Origin: Naegleria gruberi | Taxonomy: Eukaryota | DNA: 64,000 nt | Reading direction: 5' to 3' (one strand) | Assembly (NCBI GenBank): GCA_000004985.1 | Contig: GG738899.1 | Shown here: positions 31,213 to 44,209 of the stretch, piece by piece | How the letters are laid out: each line of letters begins with the position of its first letter | How positions within the stretch are numbered: position 1 is the first letter of the stretch | The notes under the pieces: generated by a model | Seen by the model: the letters and a program-made list of their open reading frames with translations, nothing else | The model's database searches: none | Told to the model about the DNA's origin: nothing | Position numbers and translations under genes: made by a program

Positions 31213-34200
31213 ATGATGATTAGAACGATGACTCTAAATTTCCTTTGCATTGCTTTACCACTAGTTGCATTGCTTTTCATCAGCTCCCAGTGGATTGTCT
31301 TTTCGAAACCTGTCGAATATCAAATAGAAACACTATCAGCCACTTCCCAACCATTGTCTTTTTCCTTCACACTTGGTCGGCAATCTTCATCACAAAACGA
31401 ATTAATTTACTTTCTTTCTTTTTACCAATTATTCGAATTCAACCAAAATGGTGGAAAATTGTCACAATTAATTGGTTGTGATTCCTCTTCATCTGGCAGT
31501 AAATTGTCATGTGAAAGCTTTTCGCATTTCAAGAATGGTGCTAAATTCTCATCTGCCAATCGAACCAATATTTTGTTTTCCAGTTTTCATGTGGACGAAA
31601 GTGATGAAAATCAAATTTATCTTTCCAGTTTTTATCAAATTTATTTATTTAATAAGAGGGAAGGTATTATTACACTACTTTCCGATAAGGATTTTGATAA
31701 AAAAACGAATGCACGAGATGGAATGTTTCTAAACGAAACTGTATTTACTGAAATACGGTCAATTACGAAAGATTTTATTGGAAATATGTTTATTTGTGAT
31801 GATGAAGTAATTTACAAAGTTGGTTTAGATGGAATTTTACGAGAATTGACCTCTCGTGAGGGAACTTCACTTAAAAAACAAAACGGCTATTCGAATCAGA
31901 CTATTCTCCTGAACCCAACTTTTATTTCACATCATAAGGGTTATATATATGGATATGACATATTTTCCATCTTTAAAATCAATATAGAAACAGGTTGGTT
32001 GACTGTTATTTCAGGAAAAGTATTTGGTTCATCATCTGGCACTGATGGACCTGCGTTGGATACCGTAATTTCGCCGAAAGGTCTTTCGTTTCTTCCAGAC
32101 GATTCGATTCTGACATTGGATCATGAATATTTCAAGATTATTAATCAGACAGATGGAATGTTGAGAACACTATTTAAATTAGAAAGTTTCAAGCCAAGTA
32201 CAAGTTCTTTCGTTTTTGGGAATTATTTGATTGGAAATGAAAACAAAATTCTAAAGATTGATTGGTTGGCTGGAAGAGTTTCATTAATTTTGAAAGGAGG
32301 AATAGGTGCTTTTGGAGATGGAGTTAATTTAAAGAATAGATATTTCAAATCAATTTCTGCAATTGCATTTAATGAGTCGAGTGGTGAATTATTTGTTGCC
32401 GATTCATCATCTGAAAATACTTTGGAAAAAATTAACATTTCAAATGGAACGTTGCAAAGCATTTCTCTAACATTTTCGAATGTTTCATGTTGGAATTCAT
32501 CAATAGAGACGAGGAGTGTTATTTCATATAATCCAGTTTCATTGCAAATCAAGGATTCGAATTTGTTTTTGGCAAATACTGGAAGCCAAAGTTCAATTCA
32601 AAAATTTGATCTAGCTCAGAAAGGTGGATCGAGTTGTTTTTATGCAGGTTCAATCAGTAGTGATAGATTATTATCTAGATCTGGACCTCTTTCAGTGATA
32701 ATGAATAATCCAAATGGAATTCATTGTTCACAAGTTTATGATGAAATTTATATTGCAGGTTTGTTTCGCATATTTTGGAAAATCAAATAACTTTCAATAA
32801 TAGATACTGATAATCATCGAATTTTGAAAAGTAGAAGAGGAACAGTGGAAGTTATTGCTGGAAATGGTATTCAAGGTTATTCAGGTAAGTTGCCATTTCT
32901 AATAATTTTATAAATTATAATAAATTTTAAGGTGATGGAGGTTTGGCTATTAATGCTCAGTTAGATAGACCTCATTCAGTTTATTATGAAGGTAGCACAA
33001 GAACTCTGTACATAGCAGACTCTGGTAATCATCGAGTGAGATCTGTACAAATGGATACTGGAATAATTTCAACAATTCTTGGAACTGGAAATTCTGGTTT
33101 CAATGGAGATGATATGAATCCGTTAGAAATTCAACTAAATTTCCCAAAATACGTTGTCCACTCACCAGGATGGGGTCTATTCATTTCAGATAGCAATAAC
33201 CACAGAGTGAGATGGTTAAACAATTCGGTTGTGACTACCATTTTAGGAAGTGGAAATTCTGGTTCAAAAATTGTGACTAACAATCCGACTCTGACTGAGC
33301 TTACTTCACCATTTGGATTATTTTTTGAAGCCTTGGCAAGTACTCTCTACGTTGCAGGTATGTTTCATATGAATTAATTTCAGTGTTTGACAAATTCGTC
33401 TAGATTCGTTCAATCACAGAATTTTATCTGTCTCCCTATTCGATGCAAGATCTGTTTCCATAATAGCAGGAACTAATTCACCTGGTTACAATGGAGATGG
33501 TATGAATCCAACACAAGCCAAGTTATTTCTTCCTAGTTCTGTTTTCATGTTATCTAAATATGAAATTTACATTGCTGATTCGTATAATAATAGAATTAGA
33601 AAGATTAGTAATGGAATTATTTCAACATATGCAATGGCTTCTCAAAAGACAGATCTCAATATACCAATTGGAATGTGTGGATATGGAAATGACCTCTTTA
33701 TTTCAACCGAGAATGAAATAATAGAATTAGTTGGAAGTTATATTTATAAGAAAGTGGGAGGATTAGGAGATGGATTGAACGTCTTCTATGCTCACGTCAA
33801 TCCAACAAAGATTCTCTTCTATCCAGACAATAGAATGTTAATTTCAGAATCAAGTACGAATAGAATTCGATTGGTGAATGAAAATGGAACGATTTCAACA
33901 ATTGCTGGAACTGGTAAATTTGGATATGGAGGAGATACAAGTGAGGCCAATGTTGCCATACTTGCTTCACCGACTGGTCTGTCATTTAGCCCTAATCATT
34001 CCACAGTTTACTTTGCCGATTCCTCCAATAATCGTATCAGAAAATTGGTTTCGGATTTGGTTTTCCTTGTTGCTGGCACAGGGGATGCTGGAAAATCCTC
34101 ATCAACCGATCCTTTTCAATCCAAATTCAATAATCCTAGACTAATTGCCACTCTCACCAATGGAGACGTTGTAATTGGAGATACTCTGTCCAATGAAATT

Positions 34201-36099
34201 CGAATTATTTCCAATAAGGAAGGAACAATTCGAACAATTGCTGATATCACAGCAGCCACCGACATGATTTCCACACAAAACAATACTCTCTACATCTCCA
34301 CCAATGAACAGATCATCAAGGCAACTCCACGCTGTGAAACAGGATTCCAATTAGTGAAACAAAACACTGAATGTGTTCCAATTTGTTATGGAATGTTTGA
34401 GAGTGGAATGGTTTGTTCAAGTCGTGGTGAATGCACTTCTCCAGATAATTGCAAATGTTGGAATGGATTATACACGGGAAAGGAATGTGAAATTCCAATT
34501 TGTTTTGGGATCTCTGCAAATGATCCTAATGTATGCTCGTATGGAAATGGAACTTGCATGATCAATAACAAGTGTCAATGTTTGGATGGATTTTATGGAG
34601 AAACTTGTCAATTTCCAATTTGTTTTTCTAAAATAATTGGAGAATCATGTGGTGGACCAAGCAGAGGAGCTTGCACCAATAAGGATGTTTGTAAATGTGG
34701 TCAATTTTACACTGGCGAACAATGCCAATACCGAATGTGTCAAGGAAAGAGTGAAATAGACAAATCTGTATGTAGTGGACATGGAAAATGCCAAGCTAAT
34801 GGAAGATGTGAATGTGACACTCTTTATATTGGAGATGATTGTTCCAATATGTCACAAATTTATGGATTGAGCATTGCTTCTGCACTCATTATTGTTATCC
34901 TCACTACAATGTTGGTAGTTTCTCTCATTTTGGGAGTAATCGTCTATAGGAAGAATAGGCGAGAGAAGAAAATAATCGAAACTGAACTCTCACTTGATGA
35001 AAGATTATTATCCTCAACTGATATATATGAAATGTCTCTATCTCACGGTTCATTAGCATCGCATGCTACTGTATCAACTGAAGATGCTTCTTCCTTCGTG
35101 ATTCCACTTCACAAGATTGGAATGGATAAACCAATTAAGGTTAGTTTCAAATTAATTATTCTATTAACAATTGAATCTTGATAAATTAATTTAACACAGA
35201 GACTTGGAGAAGGTGGAATGGGAAGTGTTTTTATGACCAAATTTAATGGAATGACAGTTGCTGTCAAGGTCTTTGATTTGAATAACTTGAATATTTCAGA
35301 GGAGGATTTCAAGAATGAAGCAATAGTATTAAGCAAACTTCGTCATCCAAATATTATTAACTTTTATGGAATTTCTACATCACCAACTAAACGATACATT
35401 ATCATGGAATGTTTGGATCAGAGCTTGGAGAAGGTAATTGCCAAATTGGAAATGAAACAATTATCTTTCACACTCGAACAAAAATTGAGAATGTTGCTGA
35501 ATATTGCTAATGGAATTGAATATTTGCATTTTTTGAAACCGAGGAGGATTATTCATCGCGATTTGAAAACAGCTAATATTCTACTAGACTCGAATGGAAA
35601 CTGCAAGGTTTGTGACTTTGGGTTGAGTAAATCCATTTCACAAGCAACTGTTTCCGCACTTACTAATCAATTGGGTACACATTTTTATATGGCTCCAGAA
35701 TTATTCGATATCAAACCGATTGATCCGACCTATGCCACATCAGTTGATATCTACAGTTTTTCTATTATCATGTGGCAATTACTATTCGAAATTAAGGATC
35801 CCTATCTCAGTAAATCTCCAGAAATATTGAGAAAGCTTGGAACTACCTCAATTCTTGAACAAGTAACTTCCTACCAATTGACCAAAATGATTTGTGAGAA
35901 CAACCACAGACCAAGCATTCCTTTCAATTCCATTGAATCATGCCATGAATGGTGTTTCGAATACATGCCTTCCTCCCAAGACGAATCTCCTCAAATCTTT
36001 GCACTTTCCCAATTAATCCAAGAATGTTGGCAAACTGATCCAAAACTCCGACCAAACATTGAACAAGTTATCCAACACCTTCAATCCCTACTCACCTAA
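31213..36099 (+). CDS. receptor-like protein kinase, paralog of 9142-14057: signal peptide, N-terminal domain, NHL repeats, EGF repeats, TM, TKL kinase (5 exons)
   Basis: Start at ATG 31213 (MMIRTMTLNFLCIALPLVALLFISS). Exons are 31213-32758, 32804-32884, 32932-33357, 33404-35139 and 35200-36099. Introns are 45-60 nt, GTTTGT/GTAAGT/GTATGT/GTTAGT to AG. Splicing restores NHL motifs (YIADTDNHRI, GYSGGDGGLA, YVADSFNHRI, IYIADSYNNRIR). There are 5-6 EGF repeats and the TM IASALIIVILTTMLVVSLILGVIVY. Kinase motifs are LGEGGMGSVF, AVK, HRDLKTANILLD, DFG and YMAPE. Joins track ORFs 31168, 32943, 33502 and 35218. Confidence 0.75.
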
Positions 36100-36387: not shown

Positions 36388-38146
36388 ATGATGATGATGA
36401 ATCAAAAGAGAATATCTGCCGTTAGATCATTGATGAAGAATGTTAATGGCAAGAATTCCATCATCATGATGAATAAGTGTTCCAATATGATGTTGATGAA
36501 GAATAATTATCACTCGAGTTTGTATCAATCGATGAAGGTTGTTCATCCGGTTGAGATTGCTGCTACACCAGAGAATAAGGATACTTCACTTCCAACTGCT
36601 GAGGAAATTCAATTTGTTGCTCCTATTGAAGATGGTGGTTTGTCGTCGACTGCTCATGTTTCCTTCTATGATATTGAAGAAGCCTTTGCAAGAATTAGTA
36701 AGTTTTGTATATATTGTTCATCAATTCTCATCATATCATGTAATTTATACATTGTTTATACTTCTTTCCATCATCATGTTGCTAATTTAAATCTTCTTCA
36801 TCATCTTTCATTTATAGAACCACTTTTACCTCCAACCCCACTGCAAGAATCAGCTGTTTTAACACAAGAAATATTCGGACAACAAAAGAACGTTTTGCAT
36901 CCTAGAAAGGTCTTTTTGAAATATGAAAATAAGCACATGACTGGAAGTTTTAAGGAAAGAGGAGCTATTAACAAGTTAGCTGCTTTGGATACAGAACAAA
37001 GAAAGAGAGGTGTTGTTGCCTCATCTGCTGGTAACCAGTAAGTATATTATCTAAATTCATTTTAGTTAAATTTCAATAGTGCTCAAGGTATGTTGAAAAT
37101 GCATTTTGTGGAGTTTTTAACTGTTTTTTAACTGTTTGATCAATATTTGGAATACAGCTGTTGCTTATCATGCTATGAGACTTGGAATTAAGGCTACTAT
37201 TTGTATGCCTGTGAATAGTCCACTTTCTAAAGTGGCCGGAACAAAGAGATATGGAGCTGAAGTAGTATTATTCGGAGAAAGTGTCGATGATGCCTATCAA
37301 GAAGCTTTGAGAATTAAGGAGGCAGAAAATAGAGTTCTCGTCCATCCATTCAACGATGACGCCATTATTGCTGGCCAAGGAACATTAGGTTTGGAACTTT
37401 TGGAACAATCACCATATATTGACACAATCGTGTGTCCAATTGGTGGAGGTGGTCTTATCAGTGGTGTTGCCATTGCTTGTAAGACTGTTAATCCAAAGAT
37501 TAAGGTTTATGGTGTTCAAACTGAAAATGTTCCTTCCATGGTTACTGCCAAAAAGAATAGAAAATCCACAACTGTTCCTTTCCATGCTACCATTGCTGAT
37601 GGTATTGCTGTTAGAAGAATTGGTGATTTGACATTCCCAATTATTGATCAATTTGTCGATGATATTGTTACTGTCACGGAAAGTGAAATTGCTCACGCTG
37701 TTCTCGTCCTTTTGGAAAGAGAAAAGACTCTCGTAGAAGGAGCTGGTGCTACTCCAGTTGCTGCCCTTTTGAGTGGAAAGTTAGAGGAAGTGACAAAGAC
37801 AAGCAGTGGTTCTCATCGTGTCTGTTGTATACTTTCTGGAGGTAATATGGATGTTGGTACTGTTAGAGATATTATCGATAGAGGTTTGGCACAAAGTGGT
37901 CGTTTAGTTCGTTTGAGAACTGTCGTTCCTGACGTTCCAGGTCAATTAGCTAAGGTTTTGACACTTTTGGGAGAACTTAAAGTCAACATTAGAGAAGTTG
38001 ACCACGAAAGAAATTACAATGTTCCTGTTGGTTATACTGGTACTGTTATTACATGCCAAACAAGAGGTTTTGAACACATTGAAAATGTCAAGAATAGTCT
38101 CATTCAACACGGTTTCAGTTTTGAAATGATTCAGTGTCATGATTAA
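36388..38146 (+). CDS. threonine dehydratase / serine-threonine ammonia-lyase (PLP fold type II) with C-terminal ACT-like regulatory domain, 4 exons including an 8-nt microexon
   Basis: Exons are 36388-36697, 36818-37037, 37080-37087 (tgctcaag) and 37158-38146. Introns are 120, 42 and 70 nt. The PLP-lysine motif is GSFKERGA. Only the microexon model restores the conserved SSAGNHAQAVAYHAMRLGIKATICMP (SAGNHAQGVA) block, and every single-intron model breaks the frame. GGGGLISG glycine-rich loop is present. The C-terminal segment of about 90 aa is ACT-like. N-terminal MMMMNQKRISAVRSLMK may be a targeting peptide. Confidence 0.7.
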
Positions 38147-38179
38147 ATTCTTTTCAACATTACTATCATTTAAAAGATA

Positions 38180-38258
38180 TTGGAAATATCGGACTTGAAC
38201 CGATGACCTACTATTGTAATTGCCAATAGCTTGCTCTCCCAAACTAAGCTAATTTCCA
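38180..38258 (-). tRNA. tRNA-like gene with perfect acceptor, D and T arms but an over-long anticodon arm (anticodon unresolved; possible very short intron or pseudogene)
   Basis: The minus strand reads TGGAAAT TA GCTT AGTTTGGGA GAGC A AGCTATTGGCAATTACAATAGT AGGTC ATCGG TTCAAGT CCGAT ATTTCCA A, then TATCTTTT (T-run terminator). The 7-bp acceptor and 5-bp T stem pair perfectly. The D-arm and variable loop are identical in pattern to tRNA-Phe-type genes. The region between position 26 and the variable loop is 22 nt instead of 17. It can form a 7-bp stem, GCTATTG/CAATAGT, with loop GCAATTA. Confidence 0.5.
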
Positions 38259-38358
38259 AATATCACTTCTTAATCCCTCAATGGTCTGGAGTAATTAATA
38301 TTTTAAAATAAGGTAATTTATGGTATGGAGCAATTCATATTTTCATTGGACATCAGTT

Positions 38359-41300
38359 TTATTTTTCTGTATTGTGATAAATACCATTCCAATCTCTTGG
38401 TGGATGAACAGCGTACTCTCTACATCTTTCTCTCAATGTTCTCGAAGGGCCATCTTCTGGTCGAATCTTTAGACATTCCTCAAAGAATAGTAAAGCTTGA
38501 GCAAAATCTCCAGATGCATACATTTCCAACGCTCTTTCGTATATTTGTCTGAGTCTCATTATTTCATCGTTTGGAGTTGGGAGAGGTCTACTACTCTTTG
38601 TATCTTTTGAGGGTTCTTTAATTGAATTGTTGGTTCTTCTTCCAAGCAACTCATATATAACACAACCAACACTCTTACCCTTCACACTGATTTGGTCAAT
38701 CTTTCTCACCTCCAATTGTTCGGCAACATAAGGTTGGAGGAATGTATCTTCAGACAACAGAATGCTGGTTCCATAAAACTTGTTTGTTCCTTCCAAACGA
38801 GAAGCCAAATTTACAGAATCACCAATAATGGTAAAGTTTAGTCTCCAAATACTTCCAATATTACCAACAACACAGGACCCACTATGTAACCCAATACGAC
38901 ACCTAAACAGTGGCTTTGCTTCCCTTTGCCATTTTCTTCTAAGGTCAGACATTCTTTGTTGACATCTCAAGGCAGCTCTACATCCTCTTAAACCAGAAAT
39001 TGCTGATGTGTCAGGAGCTCCCCAGAAGGCCATTACTATTTCAAAATTTTTGTTACATCCTGAAATCGTTAAACTTACCTGAATCACCAATATACTTATC
39101 CAAAGTTCCATTCTCGTAAATAATTTCTTCTGTCAACACATGAAAATATTCAGAAACATGTTGAATCAACATTTCAGGATCCAATTCTTCACTAATTGTT
39201 GTAAAATTTTCAATATCTGAGAAAAATATTGTCAAGTTACCAACAAGCCTACCACCCAAAGTAATTTCATTACCATTCTTCAACATGTCTCTCAGTAGTT
39301 CATTTGGAACAAACTTTTTAAATGATCGAACAGTTGTTTTCATCTTATCAAAGGCAATAGAAAGTTCATGAATTTCAGTTGTGGTGTTGTAAACTTTTGA
39401 AGTTTTTGGAGCTTCTAAATTTGAGAGAGCCTTACTTTCTCTTGAGAAGAATCTCAATGGTTTGGACACAGCTTGAGAGAATATGCAACTAAAAAGTACA
39501 CCAAAAGCAAGGCACACAAATGCGATACCAATTGTTAGTCCCAACATGAGCATAACATTACTGACAAAGTCACCATCTGGAGCAACTACGACAACAATCC
39601 AATGCATGTTCAAATCGACTGTTCTTTTTACTACTCCATGGGCAACAACATAGTCTTCACCACTAAAGGAAAAGGAATTCAAATGTGGATTATACTCAGC
39701 TGTGGACTTATTCTTATAGCCAGAGTAATCACTTGGTAAGATGTTGAGTAATACGTGTTTCAGTAAAGGATCTGAAACTTCGTGTGCTTCAGCAATTCTG
39801 ATATCGAAAGTGGAACTTTCATCAAAAACTGCTATTGCTGATGAATTCTTGAACCCAAGAACACGCTTATGGAGAACGGGTGCACCGCTATTGCTCTCTC
39901 TAGTGAAAAATTCAACAATAGCTACAAAAGAATTTGGAGAAACATAGAACGATCTAACAAAATCTGACAAGTATTTGATGTTAACATTGATACTGGTCAT
40001 TCCTAGAAAAGTTGAATCATATGGAGAATAAACGTTAGATTGGTAGCAGGTATAGATTCTTTCCTCAATTGACGATCCCTGCCATTGAACATCCATTGGA
40101 ACGAGGGCCTCTTTGTGTTTGAGAGCTAATTTGTAGAACTCTCCTTGAGTTGGGTCCCATTTATCCATTAATTCTGAATCAGTGACAGTTCTCAATTTTC
40201 CATATTTCGAAAAGTAGTAAAACGACTGAAATGTTTCATCATTTGCCTGCTTCATCAGAAAAACTCTTTGCATATTGTCGAATTGCCCCTCATCTTCGTT
40301 TGAAACTGGAAGTACTAGTTCATAACTTTCATCAACATACAAATAATCTGTATTTGGGCAAGTAAAATCCACCAAGAATATCTTTCCTATATATTGATGA
40401 TGGCTTACAGCTAGTAACCTTAAAATATTTACATAATTTTCATAAGAGTAAAAGTTACTAGTTGAAGAATTAGTATTAAGGCCACCCTCATTCATAAAAT
40501 AACTCCTATAGATGGCATGTCTCTGTTGTCTTGTTGCCTCCATACATATCCACAAAAAGTCGGAAACATAAGACTCTGCTCTGAAATATGACTGTGCCAT
40601 TACTTGATTTTTAACATCATTGGAAGCAAGAATTGAAAATCCAATAGAAATTCCTATTAATGAAAGAACTGGTATCACTAACATTACTAGCATCATGGTG
40701 ATCAATAAACATCTGAATGAGCAAATATAAAAATGTGGCCTCAATTCAACAGAAGTTGGTCTCTTCTCCTCTCCGGTAATACTTTGTGGCGTAACTATAG
40801 AATCGTTATCAAAAAGCTTTTTTGTACTAGTTTTAAAGCTTGATGCCAACGACTCTTGCTCTGCCAAATTGTGGAAGGAAATTTCTCGAGAAGGAGCAAC
40901 ATAATAAAGTGAGTTGGAACGAGCAAGTTTTTCTTGAGGTTGAATTTGGAGCATACTATTTCTCCTAGAATTTGGATTGGATGATAACTTAGAATTTGGG
41001 GATTTGGTGGAGGACATTGTGTTTGTACTTTTAACATTTGGAATAAAAACACTGGAAGAAGGTGGAGCTTGTACTTGTTGAACTGGAGTTGAATTTGGTA
41101 TACTAGTGATGGACTCTAAACTTTGTTCATTGTTGGCCGTCTTGGTCATCACATAAGTATTTAAATTATGAACTGTGGTTGGGACAGACTCTTGGTCCGA
41201 CAAATCACGAAAGAAGAATTCCTTCACTGGTGGAGCATAATAGATGGGATTATTGGCGTAAACTGGTGTTCTATCAGGAAGAGAGGGTGGGATTTGCATA

Positions 41301-41422
41301 ATACTATTCCTTCTCGAACTTGGGTTCGATACAGGATATTTAGAAATAAGATTGGGTAGTGATTCATTACTACAAGATTCAATGAGTGGTGTTACTTTGT
41401 TGCTGTGCATTGGATTCGTCAT
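38359..41422 (-). CDS. sensor-type class III nucleotidyl (adenylyl/guanylyl) cyclase, ACG-like: cytosolic low-complexity N-term, TM, extracellular sensor domain, TM, cyclase domain, C-terminal TPR-like segment (2 exons)
   Basis: Exons on the minus strand are 41422-39079 and 39035-38359. The intron is 39036-39078 (43 nt, GTAAGT..ATAG). Splicing joins ...LDKYIGDS|VMAFWGAPD across the conserved class III metal-binding motif. Further motifs are RIGLHSGSCVVGNIGS and IGDSVNLASRLEGTNK. TMs are LITMMLVMLVIPVLSLIGISIGFSIL and MLMLGLTIGIAFVCLAFGVLFSCIF, flanking an extracellular region of about 330 aa. The C-terminal YERALEMYASGDFAQALLFFEECLKIRPEDGPSRTL resembles the tail of protist sensor cyclases. 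ATG at 41420-41422. Confidence 0.7.
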
Positions 41423-41732: not shown

Positions 41733-43880
41733 TTACTTTTTACTTGAATTCAAAAATTCTGAATACCATGATCGATTTGGATAGGTTTTCATGTTTTCTC
41801 GAAGTGTTTTGAAGAGATGAAAGTCATCCTTATTCTCTACTCGATAGAGAGAATCCACAAATGCATCCACTGAATCGTAATTAGATACCTCGGGTTTGTC
41901 CTGTTTTTGTCTCAACTCCATTGCTTGACAGTGAGAATGCCACTCCTTCTCATAGAGAGGCAAATTCTTCTGAAGGGCTTCCCTTAATTCCTTTCCTCTC
42001 GATTTGGTCAATAATTTAAAATACAAATCACCTTGGAAGGGAAGTCTAAGATCTGCATAGGTGAGAGTGACAAGGCGTGTTGTCGTATCTGAGGTTTTGT
42101 AAAAGTAGTGAATGGTCAATCCATCAGCACTGATTGGTTCCTTTCCATCTGTTGTTCCATTCACTTCATTAGATACAGATGAATCACTATTCTCGTAGGT
42201 TTTATGATACATTATGAAGCAATCAAGCCCAGCATCATAAATCAAGCTACACAGATAATGGAACACTCTCTGACTGAATCCCAATCCAATTGTGAAAGGA
42301 ACATCTAATGTGGTAAAGGCAAGATGCGCTTCTTTTGAACACCTTGGGGAAATAGGTGGAGAACCCGATAAACAAGAGCAGGATTTTGAGTTTCTCAGAA
42401 TGGTTCTTGGTACTTCATCCTCTGGAACAGTACATTTGAACTGTGTAGTATCAAAGATTCGATTTGAAGAGTTTTCTTTCTGTGCAAGAGGTGATACTTG
42501 TTGGGAACCTGTTGTATCATTGCTCATACTAGTTCTGGTGCCTCTTGGTGATTGAGTTGTTTGGGGTGGATTCAATGCTGAACTTGTTGAACTTGTTGAA
42601 GATGATTGAGGGAATATTGAGGCAGTGGAAGAATTTCCTCCAGAATAGGTGATATTCTTGAAATCCACAACCCAAGGGTCCAACTTTTTACGGACCTCTT
42701 TACTGGACGCATAAATTGCCAGCACGTAATCTCTTGGGTAGGGTAATTGATAGACATACTTGATACACTTGAGTCCTTTCAAATTCTTTCCAATCATGAA
42801 ATTGGTCGAGGAAATGTAGCGAGCTGTTGACATTGGTTTCTCCTTCTCATAGACACAATTCCAATAGGGTGAGTCTTCAATGAGAGCAAAACTATTCGTA
42901 ATGTGATGATCTGACAATGTCTTGTGAATGAAATCCTCAGTCTTGAATCGACAATCTCTTCCCTTGGTTGTGTCCAATGCAATGGCTCTGGTAAATTCCT
43001 CTCCATTCTTTAAGAGAAAGTTTTTCAAAAAGTCACTCCTTGAATATCGTGGAAATTGGTCCAATTTCATGTCAGTGAGTACAGCCAAGTAGACAGTGCT
43101 GAATAGATTCTCAGGCGATAGTAACTCAACCATTGTAATGAAATGATAAGCCTCCTCTGGCCATTGATTGGCTTCATAGACATTTTGTAAAGTTTCCCAA
43201 TTATTTTTCACCTTCTTATTTATGATATTTGGTAAATTCAACCCACCAATAATATACTTCTCCATAATTACAGAAGCCAATGCATAACAAATCTTGATGG
43301 CATTCACATAGGGTTCTGCCACTGATGAGCTAGCAACGACCCCCGAAAAGATGTCATTCACAAAATTCAAACTACGCACAGATTTTGTATCCAATGTTTG
43401 TGGTGTATTGCCACCAGTTTTTCTCCTTCCAAATAGTGAAGTTCCAGTACTATTTCTTGGAGTACTTGTTGTTGAGGATGATGAGGTGGTAAAGGATGAA
43501 TTCGGTAACAATCGGTTGCCAAATCTGAGAAAGTAAGCATTCTTGTACTCTTCAAAATCTCTCAAAAAGTGAACAGTTTCATTACAGAGGGCAATATTGG
43601 TGAGATAGTCATAGAAATGATTTCTTGCAGCTTCCACTTCCATAACTTCAGTAAATTGGACAGCATACTTGGAAATATCAAAAGAACCAGAATTATTATT
43701 GGAAAATGCTGAACAATTATTAGAAAGATGTCCACCGTTAGGAGAGGTTTCATTCAATGAAGAAGAATTTGATGATGAACTTGCCGAGGAACTATTCGAA
43801 TTGTTAGAATTATTGAAGAGGAGTGGAAACAGAGAACGAGACGATCTCTTACTCGGTGTAGAAGGAGAATTGACCATCAT
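41733..43880 (-). CDS. RGS-domain-containing protein with Ser/Asn/Thr-rich low-complexity inserts
   Basis: The track ORF starts at TTG (43895). The first ATG is at 43878-43880 (MMVNSPSTPSK). The RGS-like domain is split by a low-complexity insert: FTEVMEVEAARNHFYDYLTNIALCNETVHFLRDFEEYKN ... WPEEAYHFITMVELLSPENLFSTVYLAVLTDMKLDQFPRYSRSDFL. The C-terminal 400 aa are unassigned. Confidence 0.45.
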   Translation of the reverse strand: MMVNSPSTPSKRSSRSLFPLLFNNSNNSNSSSASSSSNSSSLNETSPNGGHLSNNCSAFSNNNSGSFDISKYAVQFTEVMEVEAARNHFYDYLTNIALCNETVHFLRDFEEYKNAYFLRFGNRLLPNSSFTTSSSSTTSTPRNSTGTSLFGRRKTGGNTPQTLDTKSVRSLNFVNDIFSGVVASSSVAEPYVNAIKICYALASVIMEKYIIGGLNLPNIINKKVKNNWETLQNVYEANQWPEEAYHFITMVELLSPENLFSTVYLAVLTDMKLDQFPRYSRSDFLKNFLLKNGEEFTRAIALDTTKGRDCRFKTEDFIHKTLSDHHITNSFALIEDSPYWNCVYEKEKPMSTARYISSTNFMIGKNLKGLKCIKYVYQLPYPRDYVLAIYASSKEVRKKLDPWVVDFKNITYSGGNSSTASIFPQSSSTSSTSSALNPPQTTQSPRGTRTSMSNDTTGSQQVSPLAQKENSSNRIFDTTQFKCTVPEDEVPRTILRNSKSCSCLSGSPPISPRCSKEAHLAFTTLDVPFTIGLGFSQRVFHYLCSLIYDAGLDCFIMYHKTYENSDSSVSNEVNGTTDGKEPISADGLTIHYFYKTSDTTTRLVTLTYADLRLPFQGDLYFKLLTKSRGKELREALQKNLPLYEKEWHSHCQAMELRQKQDKPEVSNYDSVDAFVDSLYRVENKDDFHLFKTLRENMKTYPNRSWYSEFLNSSKK

Positions 43881-44209
43881 GAAGGAGATGACCAATTTTC
43901 AAAATGTATTTTGTTTTACTTGTTTTTTTACCTTTTTGAGGAGAATTTGAAAGGTGACTAGTCTCTCAGGTATGGTTAATTTATGAAGGTTGATGAAGGA
44001 GATGAAAAATCCTGAAACCAAGTACGAACCAGGTCCAGCACCACCTGTTGATATCTCATTGGAATTAATCGGGCAACTTGAGAATGAATTAAGGTACTTT
44101 CGAAAATGTTACAAAAAAAAACTGTAAAACAAGTTGGACAGAGATTGTAACCGGATAACCATGATAAGAACCTTGCTTCCTCATTTTATTCTTTATTCGA
44201 ATCCTGAAA

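Follow-up and report, generated by a model that had tools for sequence, protein, structure and literature searches.

What kind of signal receptor is encoded by a Naegleria gene in which a nucleotidyl cyclase follows a putative extracellular domain, and to which family of cyclases does the product belong? The question is raised by positions 38359..41422 (minus strand) of a 64,000-nucleotide stretch of Naegleria gruberi contig GG738899.1 (assembly GCA_000004985.1), the whole of which we refer to as the window. An earlier note, made from the letters alone, read this locus as a sensor cyclase resembling the adenylyl cyclase G (ACG) of dictyostelids, with an intron splitting its catalytic motif. 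Our analysis indicates that the gene very probably codes for a class IIIb adenylyl cyclase that is a membrane-bound receptor built on a bacterial plan, present as a eukaryotic gene copy. The domain order is a low-complexity head, a first transmembrane helix (TM1), a dCache_1-like ectodomain, a second transmembrane helix (TM2), a HAMP-like linker, a class III cyclase domain and a TPR-like tail, arranged as listed here with window coordinates and amino acid (aa) positions in the product; AF2 denotes AlphaFold2 models, and their confidence is given as the predicted local distance difference test (pLDDT).

38359..41422, minus strand: whole cyclase gene; ATG at 41422, stop at 38361..38359, two exons, 1006-aa product (or 1002 aa counted from Met5)
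40718..41422, minus strand: predicted cytosolic low-complexity head, aa 1-235; S 17%, P 11%, N 10%
40619..40717, minus strand: TM1, aa 236-268, from a Kyte-Doolittle scan; AF2 helix 236-309
39566..40618, minus strand: predicted extracellular sensor of diverged double-Cache (dCache_1-like) type, aa 269-619
39467..39565, minus strand: TM2, aa 620-652, from hydropathy; AF2 helix 616-667
39311..39466, minus strand: HAMP-like linker, aa 653-704; SKPL... (AS1), a 14-aa connector, then TEIHELSIAFDKMKTTV (AS2)
39257..39310, minus strand: short helix or signalling segment before the catalytic domain, aa 705-722 (FKKFVPNELLRDMLKNG...); AF2 helix 707-715
38638..39256, minus strand: class III cyclase homology domain split by the intron, aa 723-914; Asp736, Asp780, Lys776, Thr850, Asn857, Arg861
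39036..39078, minus strand: spliceosomal intron of 43 nt separating GDS from VMAFWG; GTAAGT...AATAG; falls in phase 1 of the Val782 codon
38569..38637, minus strand: low-confidence linker, aa 915-937; pLDDT about 57 (AF2)
38362..38568, minus strand: TPR-like three-helix tail, aa 938-1006; weak TPR_2; AF2 helices 938-955, 959-972 and 977-991; ends ...PPRDWNGIYHNTEK

The gene model joins two minus-strand open reading frames (ORFs) of the ORF listing, 39053..41422 (789 aa) and 38359..39111 (250 aa). Exon 1 ends ...ATT GGT GAT TCA G/GTAAGT and exon 2 resumes ...AAATAG/TA ATG GCC TTC TGG; removal of the intron gives a 3021-nt coding sequence whose product reads ...LDKYIGDS/VMAFWGAP..., with the motif intact as ...LDKYIGDSVMAFWGAP..., and the unspliced frame meets a TAA nine codons into the intron. 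The same gene is in the databases as NAEGRDRAFT_72673 (XP_002672261.1, EFC39517.1, D2VUI4) under the name "predicted protein"; that public model starts at Met5, is 100% identical over its 1002 aa and has the identical splice junction, so that the intron described by the earlier note within GDS/VMAFWG stands (39078..39036). A literature search by gene identifiers found no paper naming the gene, which is already catalogued and uncharacterised. The coding motif is uninterrupted in genomic DNA of N. lovaniensis and of a Naegleria sp. metagenome contig, and these comparative sequences support the junction that joins GDS to VMAFWG in N. gruberi. The position of the motif intron is itself not conserved: in Willaertia magna the intron (49 nt, GTAAGT...AAAG; nt 1887-1935 of the gene at locus L002) follows the Met codon in phase 0 and lies 5 nt downstream of the N. 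gruberi site, and there is no intron at the N. lovaniensis site (nt 2219-2263 of the gene at locus L001). The shifted introns could reflect intron sliding, or independent gains at neighbouring AG/G sites.

The class III cyclase core proposed in the earlier note is recognised by Pfam Guanylate_cyc (PF00211) over aa 728-903 with an E-value of 6.9e-20 (71.8 bits against a cutoff of 21.9), and the catalytic motifs quoted there lie at aa 774-787, 828-843 and 847-864. All six catalytic residues are present, namely the metal-binding Asp736 and Asp780, the base-specifying Lys776 and Thr850, and the transition-state Asn857 and Arg861, and each is conserved in 60 or 61 of the 61 aligned homologues (Lys in all 61, Thr in 60). 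The best relatives in the PDB are class IIIb or bacterial enzymes, CyaB (3r5g; 4.9e-31) and CyaC (1wc0; 1e-21), and Lys776/Thr850 align to the Lys/Thr pair of CyaB. The sensory parts of these two enzymes differ from those of the Naegleria cyclase: the membrane domain of CyaB is a MASE2, CyaC is soluble and multidomain, and neither is known to carry a dCache ectodomain or a HAMP. At the Lys position guanylyl cyclases have a Glu, and where the Asp or Thr stands they have a Cys or some other residue; a guanylyl or other non-adenylyl specificity is very hard to credit in a protein that shares its Lys/Thr pair with CyaB and CyaC, both class IIIb adenylyl cyclases, and whose homologues retain the pair so consistently. 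A single class III domain that holds all six residues must work as a homodimer with two symmetric active sites, and because the Naegleria protein has one such domain we predict that it is a homodimer. Class IIIb is marked in part by a Thr in place of the substrate-binding Asp (PMC2613629). Because Lys776 is retained and Thr850 replaces the Asp, these residues point to an ATP-specific adenylyl cyclase of class IIIb, and the choice between adenylyl and guanylyl specificity, which the earlier note proposed to make from the substrate-specifying residues, falls on the former. The prokaryotic class IIIb cyclases tested up to 2009 all responded to inorganic carbon (PMC2613629), and by this analogy CO2/bicarbonate modulation of the Naegleria cyclase is possible.

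The bacterial character of the protein extends well beyond its catalytic domain. A search with the segment from TM2 to the C-terminus returned about 7000 proteins, the best bacterial ones sharing 38-42% identity over 96-100% of the query and belonging to Planctomycetota, Syntrophales, Myxococcales, Spirochaetota and other groups; the precomputed architectures of the bacterial relatives are dCache_1 (with or without MCP-like_PDC_1), HAMP and Guanylate_cyc (with or without TPR_2). For example, P0044, a protein from a Planctomycetota metagenome-assembled genome with dCache_1, HAMP, Guanylate_cyc and TPR_2, aligns with aa 465-1002 at 34% identity over 542 columns (E 2e-90), colinearly through the distal-proximal Cache junction, TM2, HAMP, cyclase and tail to a shared ending ...PP.DWNG....K. 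The bacterial dCache_1-HAMP-cyclase-TPR receptors (P0044, P0063, P0069 and P0099) thus resemble the Naegleria protein in domain order, in the Lys/Thr site and in the tail signature PPxDW(N/D)G...K; the Naegleria protein differs in having an extra head of about 235 aa, a spliceosomal intron and a sensor longer by some 50-70 aa, and its sensor and HAMP regions are below Pfam detection whereas their bacterial counterparts are Pfam-positive. Mean identity to the bacterial homologues is 49.5% in the cyclase, 32.8% in the tail, 26.6% in the HAMP region and about 14% in the sensor. The tail, which the earlier note had rightly described as TPR-like, gives a weak TPR_2 match (19.1 bits, below the cutoff of 27; E 0.0013) where the homologous tail of P0044 scores 25 bits, and has three helices in the AF2 model. 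Its Y, A, D, R, P, W, G and K columns are nearly invariant in the 61-sequence alignment, and alignment with P0044 and P0006 shows conservation up to the C-terminal Lys in bacterial homologues; although only weakly TPR by hidden Markov model, the three-helix tail is, as judged from this alignment, a conserved feature of the family.

Since the relatives are overwhelmingly bacterial, it might be supposed that the locus is bacterial contamination, or a very recent transfer, and no true gene of the amoeba. We give this almost no chance, as the intron signals GTAAGT...AATAG are identical to those of a putative intron in a neighbouring gene, composition is uniform (a G+C content of 0.31-0.40 across all 2-kb bins of the window, and 0.36 at the cyclase gene), the flanking genes are eukaryotic, the head is of a eukaryotic, low-complexity style, and orthologues of N. 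lovaniensis and Willaertia lie on large contigs with introns of their own. Because of its spliceosomal intron, its low-complexity N-terminal extension, its eukaryotic neighbours and its heterolobosean orthologues (in N. lovaniensis, Willaertia magna and uncultured relatives), we regard the gene as a eukaryotic copy within a family that is otherwise massively bacterial. A neighbour-joining tree groups the heterolobosean sequences as a single clade within the bacterial ones, a placement that is indicative only because the tree has no support values. Synteny lends no support, since the orthologues in N. lovaniensis and Willaertia have different neighbours.

Some features of the orthologues deserve comment. 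The N. lovaniensis model C9374_013432 (L001, 4001..6951; 890 aa) stops early at ...FDELWRRIRR and is without the PPxDWNG...K end, probably through a mis-called 3' intron or exon; its gene span includes about 278 nt of introns, compared with 43 nt in N. gruberi. A heterolobosean-type cyclase, P0013 (46% identity from TM2 to the C-terminus), adjoins a gene resembling those of ionotropic glutamate receptors (Lig_chan and SBP_bac_3; locus L004, ERZ27315067 k141_1112044), and the sequences indicate that uncultured relatives carry the same receptor cyclase.

The layout drawn in the earlier note agrees closely with the one mapped here: its head of about 230 aa corresponds to about 235 aa by hydropathy, its two transmembrane helices on either side of some 330 extracellular residues correspond to helices at about aa 236-268 and 620-652 flanking about 350, and its sensor region of 39600-40600 matches the mapped 39566..40618; its sole omission was the HAMP-like linker between TM2 and the cyclase. 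Because the cyclase must face ATP, and because positive charges lie at the cytosolic side of both helices, the head and the catalytic half should be cytosolic and the sensor extracellular. In the AF2 model TM1 runs unbroken into the long first helix of the sensor. The head contains an internal repeat of about 80 aa (local alignment score 110) with an RRNS in each copy, at aa 37-40 and 153-156; the copies read SRRNS(I/M)(M/L)QI followed by a YY(A/V)(P/A)P...(E/S)QES stretch, and we note that RRNS matches the R-R-x-S consensus of basic (protein kinase A-type) kinases. The head is not conserved, being absent or unrelated in orthologues, which span just 73-77% of the query, and a regulatory role for it is speculative.

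The sensor is predicted to fold as a long N-terminal helix with membrane-distal and membrane-proximal PAS-like modules between the two transmembrane helices. Among solved structures it resembles the dCache domains of the chemoreceptors PctD (7prq), PacA (7psg), McpX (6d8v), McpU (6f9g) and PctA (9koo/5ltx), at identities of 8-15%; the output of those receptors is a methyl-accepting chemotaxis protein (MCP) signalling domain, whereas that of the Naegleria protein is a cyclase. A comparison that is independent of the model gives a similar answer, with hhalign aligning the heterolobosean sensor profile to Pfam-positive bacterial dCache_1 sensors (97.5%, E 6.5e-12, 190 columns), and the Willaertia orthologue gives a sub-threshold dCache_1 match (13.4 bits against a cutoff of 45, E 0.055). 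As modelled, the ectodomain is a diverged dCache_1-like domain. Behind TM2, aa 653-704 align colinearly with the Pfam-positive HAMP of P0044 (aa 232-285, 39.4 bits), and in the AF2 model a helix ends at 667, a loop spans 668-681 and a second helix spans 682-704. With some 50 aa directly after the last transmembrane helix, a predicted helix-connector-helix form and homology to known HAMPs, this segment is HAMP-like, a label that we take from homology and topology, since Pfam itself gives the segment no HAMP score. A phmmer search of the linker against the PDB gave one chance match and nothing else. In the adjoining pre-catalytic region F701, V705, P706, L709 and V710 are at least 90% conserved in the 61-sequence alignment, and PDB matches to OaPAC, to a phytochrome-cyclase fusion and to NPR-A reach upstream of the catalytic domain, starting at query aa 679, 699 and 652 respectively.

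Several points weigh against a bacterial-type receptor cyclase of this description. Pfam HAMP (PF00672) matches neither the whole protein, nor the isolated linker, nor the heterolobosean relatives P0012 and P0013, and Pfam dCache_1 (PF02743) has no match at E<=10 in the N. gruberi or N. lovaniensis sensor. The first model of the sensor is of moderate confidence (pLDDT 64.8, with 42-57 in the distal module), and the better model was built from an alignment that included bacterial dCache sequences and could impose the fold; the sensor and HAMP assignments are thus predictions that draw on modelled structure and transitive homology. Activity, substrate, dimerisation and ligand gating, like membrane topology, are properties that we infer by analogy, and the loss of the ligand motif described below leaves room for a sensor that may bind no small molecule. 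Other Pfam families yielded just a chance TBK1 coiled-coil match on the sensor and linker, and a profile built from three orthologous sensors, searched against 1.84 billion representative proteins, matched only Willaertia and one 437-aa heterolobosean fragment; because this exhaustive search returned two heterolobosean proteins only, the sensor has no sequence-detectable relatives at that level.

The likeness to ACG invites a different interpretation, in which the protein is the homologue or functional equivalent of the Dictyostelium enzyme and its ectodomain is a CHASE-type intramolecular osmosensor and no ligand receptor. Both are protist receptor cyclases in which transmembrane helices flank a Cache-clan ectodomain and the class III domain is single and cytosolic (PMC4399386). 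The ACG ectodomain is, however, a CHASE domain, and ACG is reported from dictyostelids only (PMC4399386); the Naegleria protein has a dCache_1-like ectodomain and falls with the dCache-HAMP cyclases of bacteria, in a comparison that takes ACG by description. Pfam CHASE has no match in the cyclase, the CHASE structure 3t4j ranked below every dCache structure, and the nearest relatives found are heterolobosean and bacterial. We have therefore rejected the CHASE/ACG interpretation, which is quite improbable. From the earlier note the outline of a two-TM receptor class III cyclase survives and membership of the ACG type does not; its suggestion of a CHASE/Cache-like sensor named the right superfamily.

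If the ectodomain is of the dCache_1 type, the residues lining its pocket may provide clues to what it binds. The sensors of the bacterial family best match Mlp24, PctA, Mlp37, PctB/C and the calcium-channel subunit α2δ-1. The amino-acid-binding AA_motif, which in PctA numbering comprises Y121, R126, W128, Y144 and D173 (PMC8915833), is present in many of the dCache-bearing bacterial relatives sampled, and a dCache_1AA cyclase of Legionella pneumophila, WP_154766400.1, binds amino acids (PMC8915833). In N. gruberi the corresponding residues are W422, G427, F429, Q446 and N479, so that the Y/R/W/Y/D of the bacterial receptors reads W/G/F/Q/N, and we note that a D173N substitution in PctA abolishes amino-acid binding (PMC8915833). 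A canonical dCache_1AA amino-acid sensor was accordingly rejected as a candidate, and with the motif replaced in each of the four heterolobosean sequences, an amino acid held in the canonical manner would not be the ligand. Q446 and N479 are invariant in all four, and such conserved replacements would argue for a changed specificity over free decay. We suggest tentatively, as a possibility well short of an even chance, that the heterolobosean clade (Naegleria, Willaertia and uncultured relatives) has retuned a bacterial amino-acid-type dCache pocket to another extracellular signal, with the invariant Gln446 and Asn479 in place of its two amino-group contacts.

The same replacements could instead mean that the sensor is a relic, a dimerisation scaffold that binds no ligand, with activity controlled intracellularly, for instance through an effect of CO2/bicarbonate on the class IIIb catalytic domain or through phosphorylation at the RRNS sites of the head. 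The sensor matches PctA at none of the five AA_motif positions, the amino-group contacts Y144 and D173 and the carboxyl-binding R126 all being replaced, and it is the most diverged domain in comparison with bacteria; the uniform response to inorganic carbon of the prokaryotic class IIIb cyclases tested by 2009 and the two RRxS sites of the head would offer intracellular routes of control. Yet the sensor keeps 56% identity to N. lovaniensis and 41% to Willaertia, about equal to the HAMP region, many positions neighbouring Q446 and N479 are also invariant in the four heterolobosean sequences, suggesting a pocket retuned and not decayed, and the head with its RRNS sites is not conserved in the orthologues. 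We therefore consider a relic sensor unlikely, and retain a receptor-type cyclase as the preferred reading.

In such a receptor, by analogy with the homologous bacterial ones, a small extracellular molecule would bind the membrane-distal module of the dCache domain. Occupancy of the site would shift TM2 and the signal would pass into a HAMP-like four-helix bundle, from which the short conserved pre-catalytic helix may relay it to a dimeric catalytic core; the relative position of the two catalytic domains would then be set, and with it the rate of cyclic AMP (cAMP) synthesis from ATP.

The cyclase set of Naegleria is very large, one count giving at least 81 (PMC9928731); N. gruberi D2VLR9 (894 aa) and D2V3A4 (745 aa) are listed with dCache_1 and Guanylate_cyc as "bacterial-type adenylate cyclase" in supplementary files 12 and 17 of Upadhyay et al. 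(PMC4822843), a source that also credits Heterolobosea with 13 dCache_1, two CHASE and five CHASE4 domains. D2VUI4 was not found in the portion of those tables that was covered. Compared by description, D2VLR9 and D2V3A4 are from the same organism and of the same kind of protein as D2VUI4, which differs in giving no match to the current Pfam dCache_1. The cyclase described here is an ordinary, if unusually diverged, member of a gene family greatly expanded in N. gruberi.

The surroundings of the gene include the following additional features.

38180..38258, minus strand: tRNA-like gene, a neighbour outside the cyclase gene; Rfam RF00005, 44.2 bits against a cutoff of 29
37038..37079, plus strand: putative intron of the threonine dehydratase gene, 42 nt, GTAAGT..AATAG
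37080..37087, plus strand: putative 8-nt micro-exon TGCTCAAG of the threonine dehydratase gene, between the two putative introns
37088..37157, plus strand: putative intron of the threonine dehydratase gene, 70 nt, GTATGT..ACAG

As the earlier note had recognised, the cyclase gene is convergent with a threonine-dehydratase-type gene (PALP and ACT domains), which ends at 38146, and the tRNA-like gene lies in the 212-bp gap (38147..38358) between the two stops. Default ARAGORN called no tRNA at 38180..38258; with introns allowed it reports a tRNA-Ala(GGC) with a 6-nt intron. The acceptor stem is U1-A72/G2-C71/G3-C70, without G3:U70, and the gene is 39% GC; since the alanine identity pair is G3:U70, the Ala(GGC) call is in conflict with the G3-C70 of the stem. 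An alternative is to read the loop AUUACAA as Val(UAC), which requires a non-canonical intron position. In the threonine dehydratase gene (36388..38146, plus strand), restoration of the conserved PLP-enzyme motif SSAGN-HAQA-VAYHA, read by eye, appears to require the two short introns listed above. Upstream of the cyclase gene, 41733..43895 (minus strand) encodes a 720-aa Ser/Asn-rich protein with a weak N-terminal RGS match (E 3e-4, below the Pfam cutoff), while beyond the opposite end of the cyclase gene come an EGF/NHL-repeat protein (33502..35181) and a kinase domain (35218..36099). A number of signalling genes thus lie near one another, without sign of functional linkage.

This protein adds to the Cache-clan repertoire of the Heterolobosea and reveals no new kind of system. 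It illustrates that profile searches miss such eukaryotic sensors and that structure prediction recovers them, and aa 269-619 provide a defined, expressible ectodomain for ligand discovery. If the proposed retuning of the pocket is true, an amoeboflagellate would have a bacterial-style chemoreceptor that turns an environmental or prey-derived cue directly into cAMP, and the protein would be an entry point to what the expanded cyclase repertoire of Naegleria senses.

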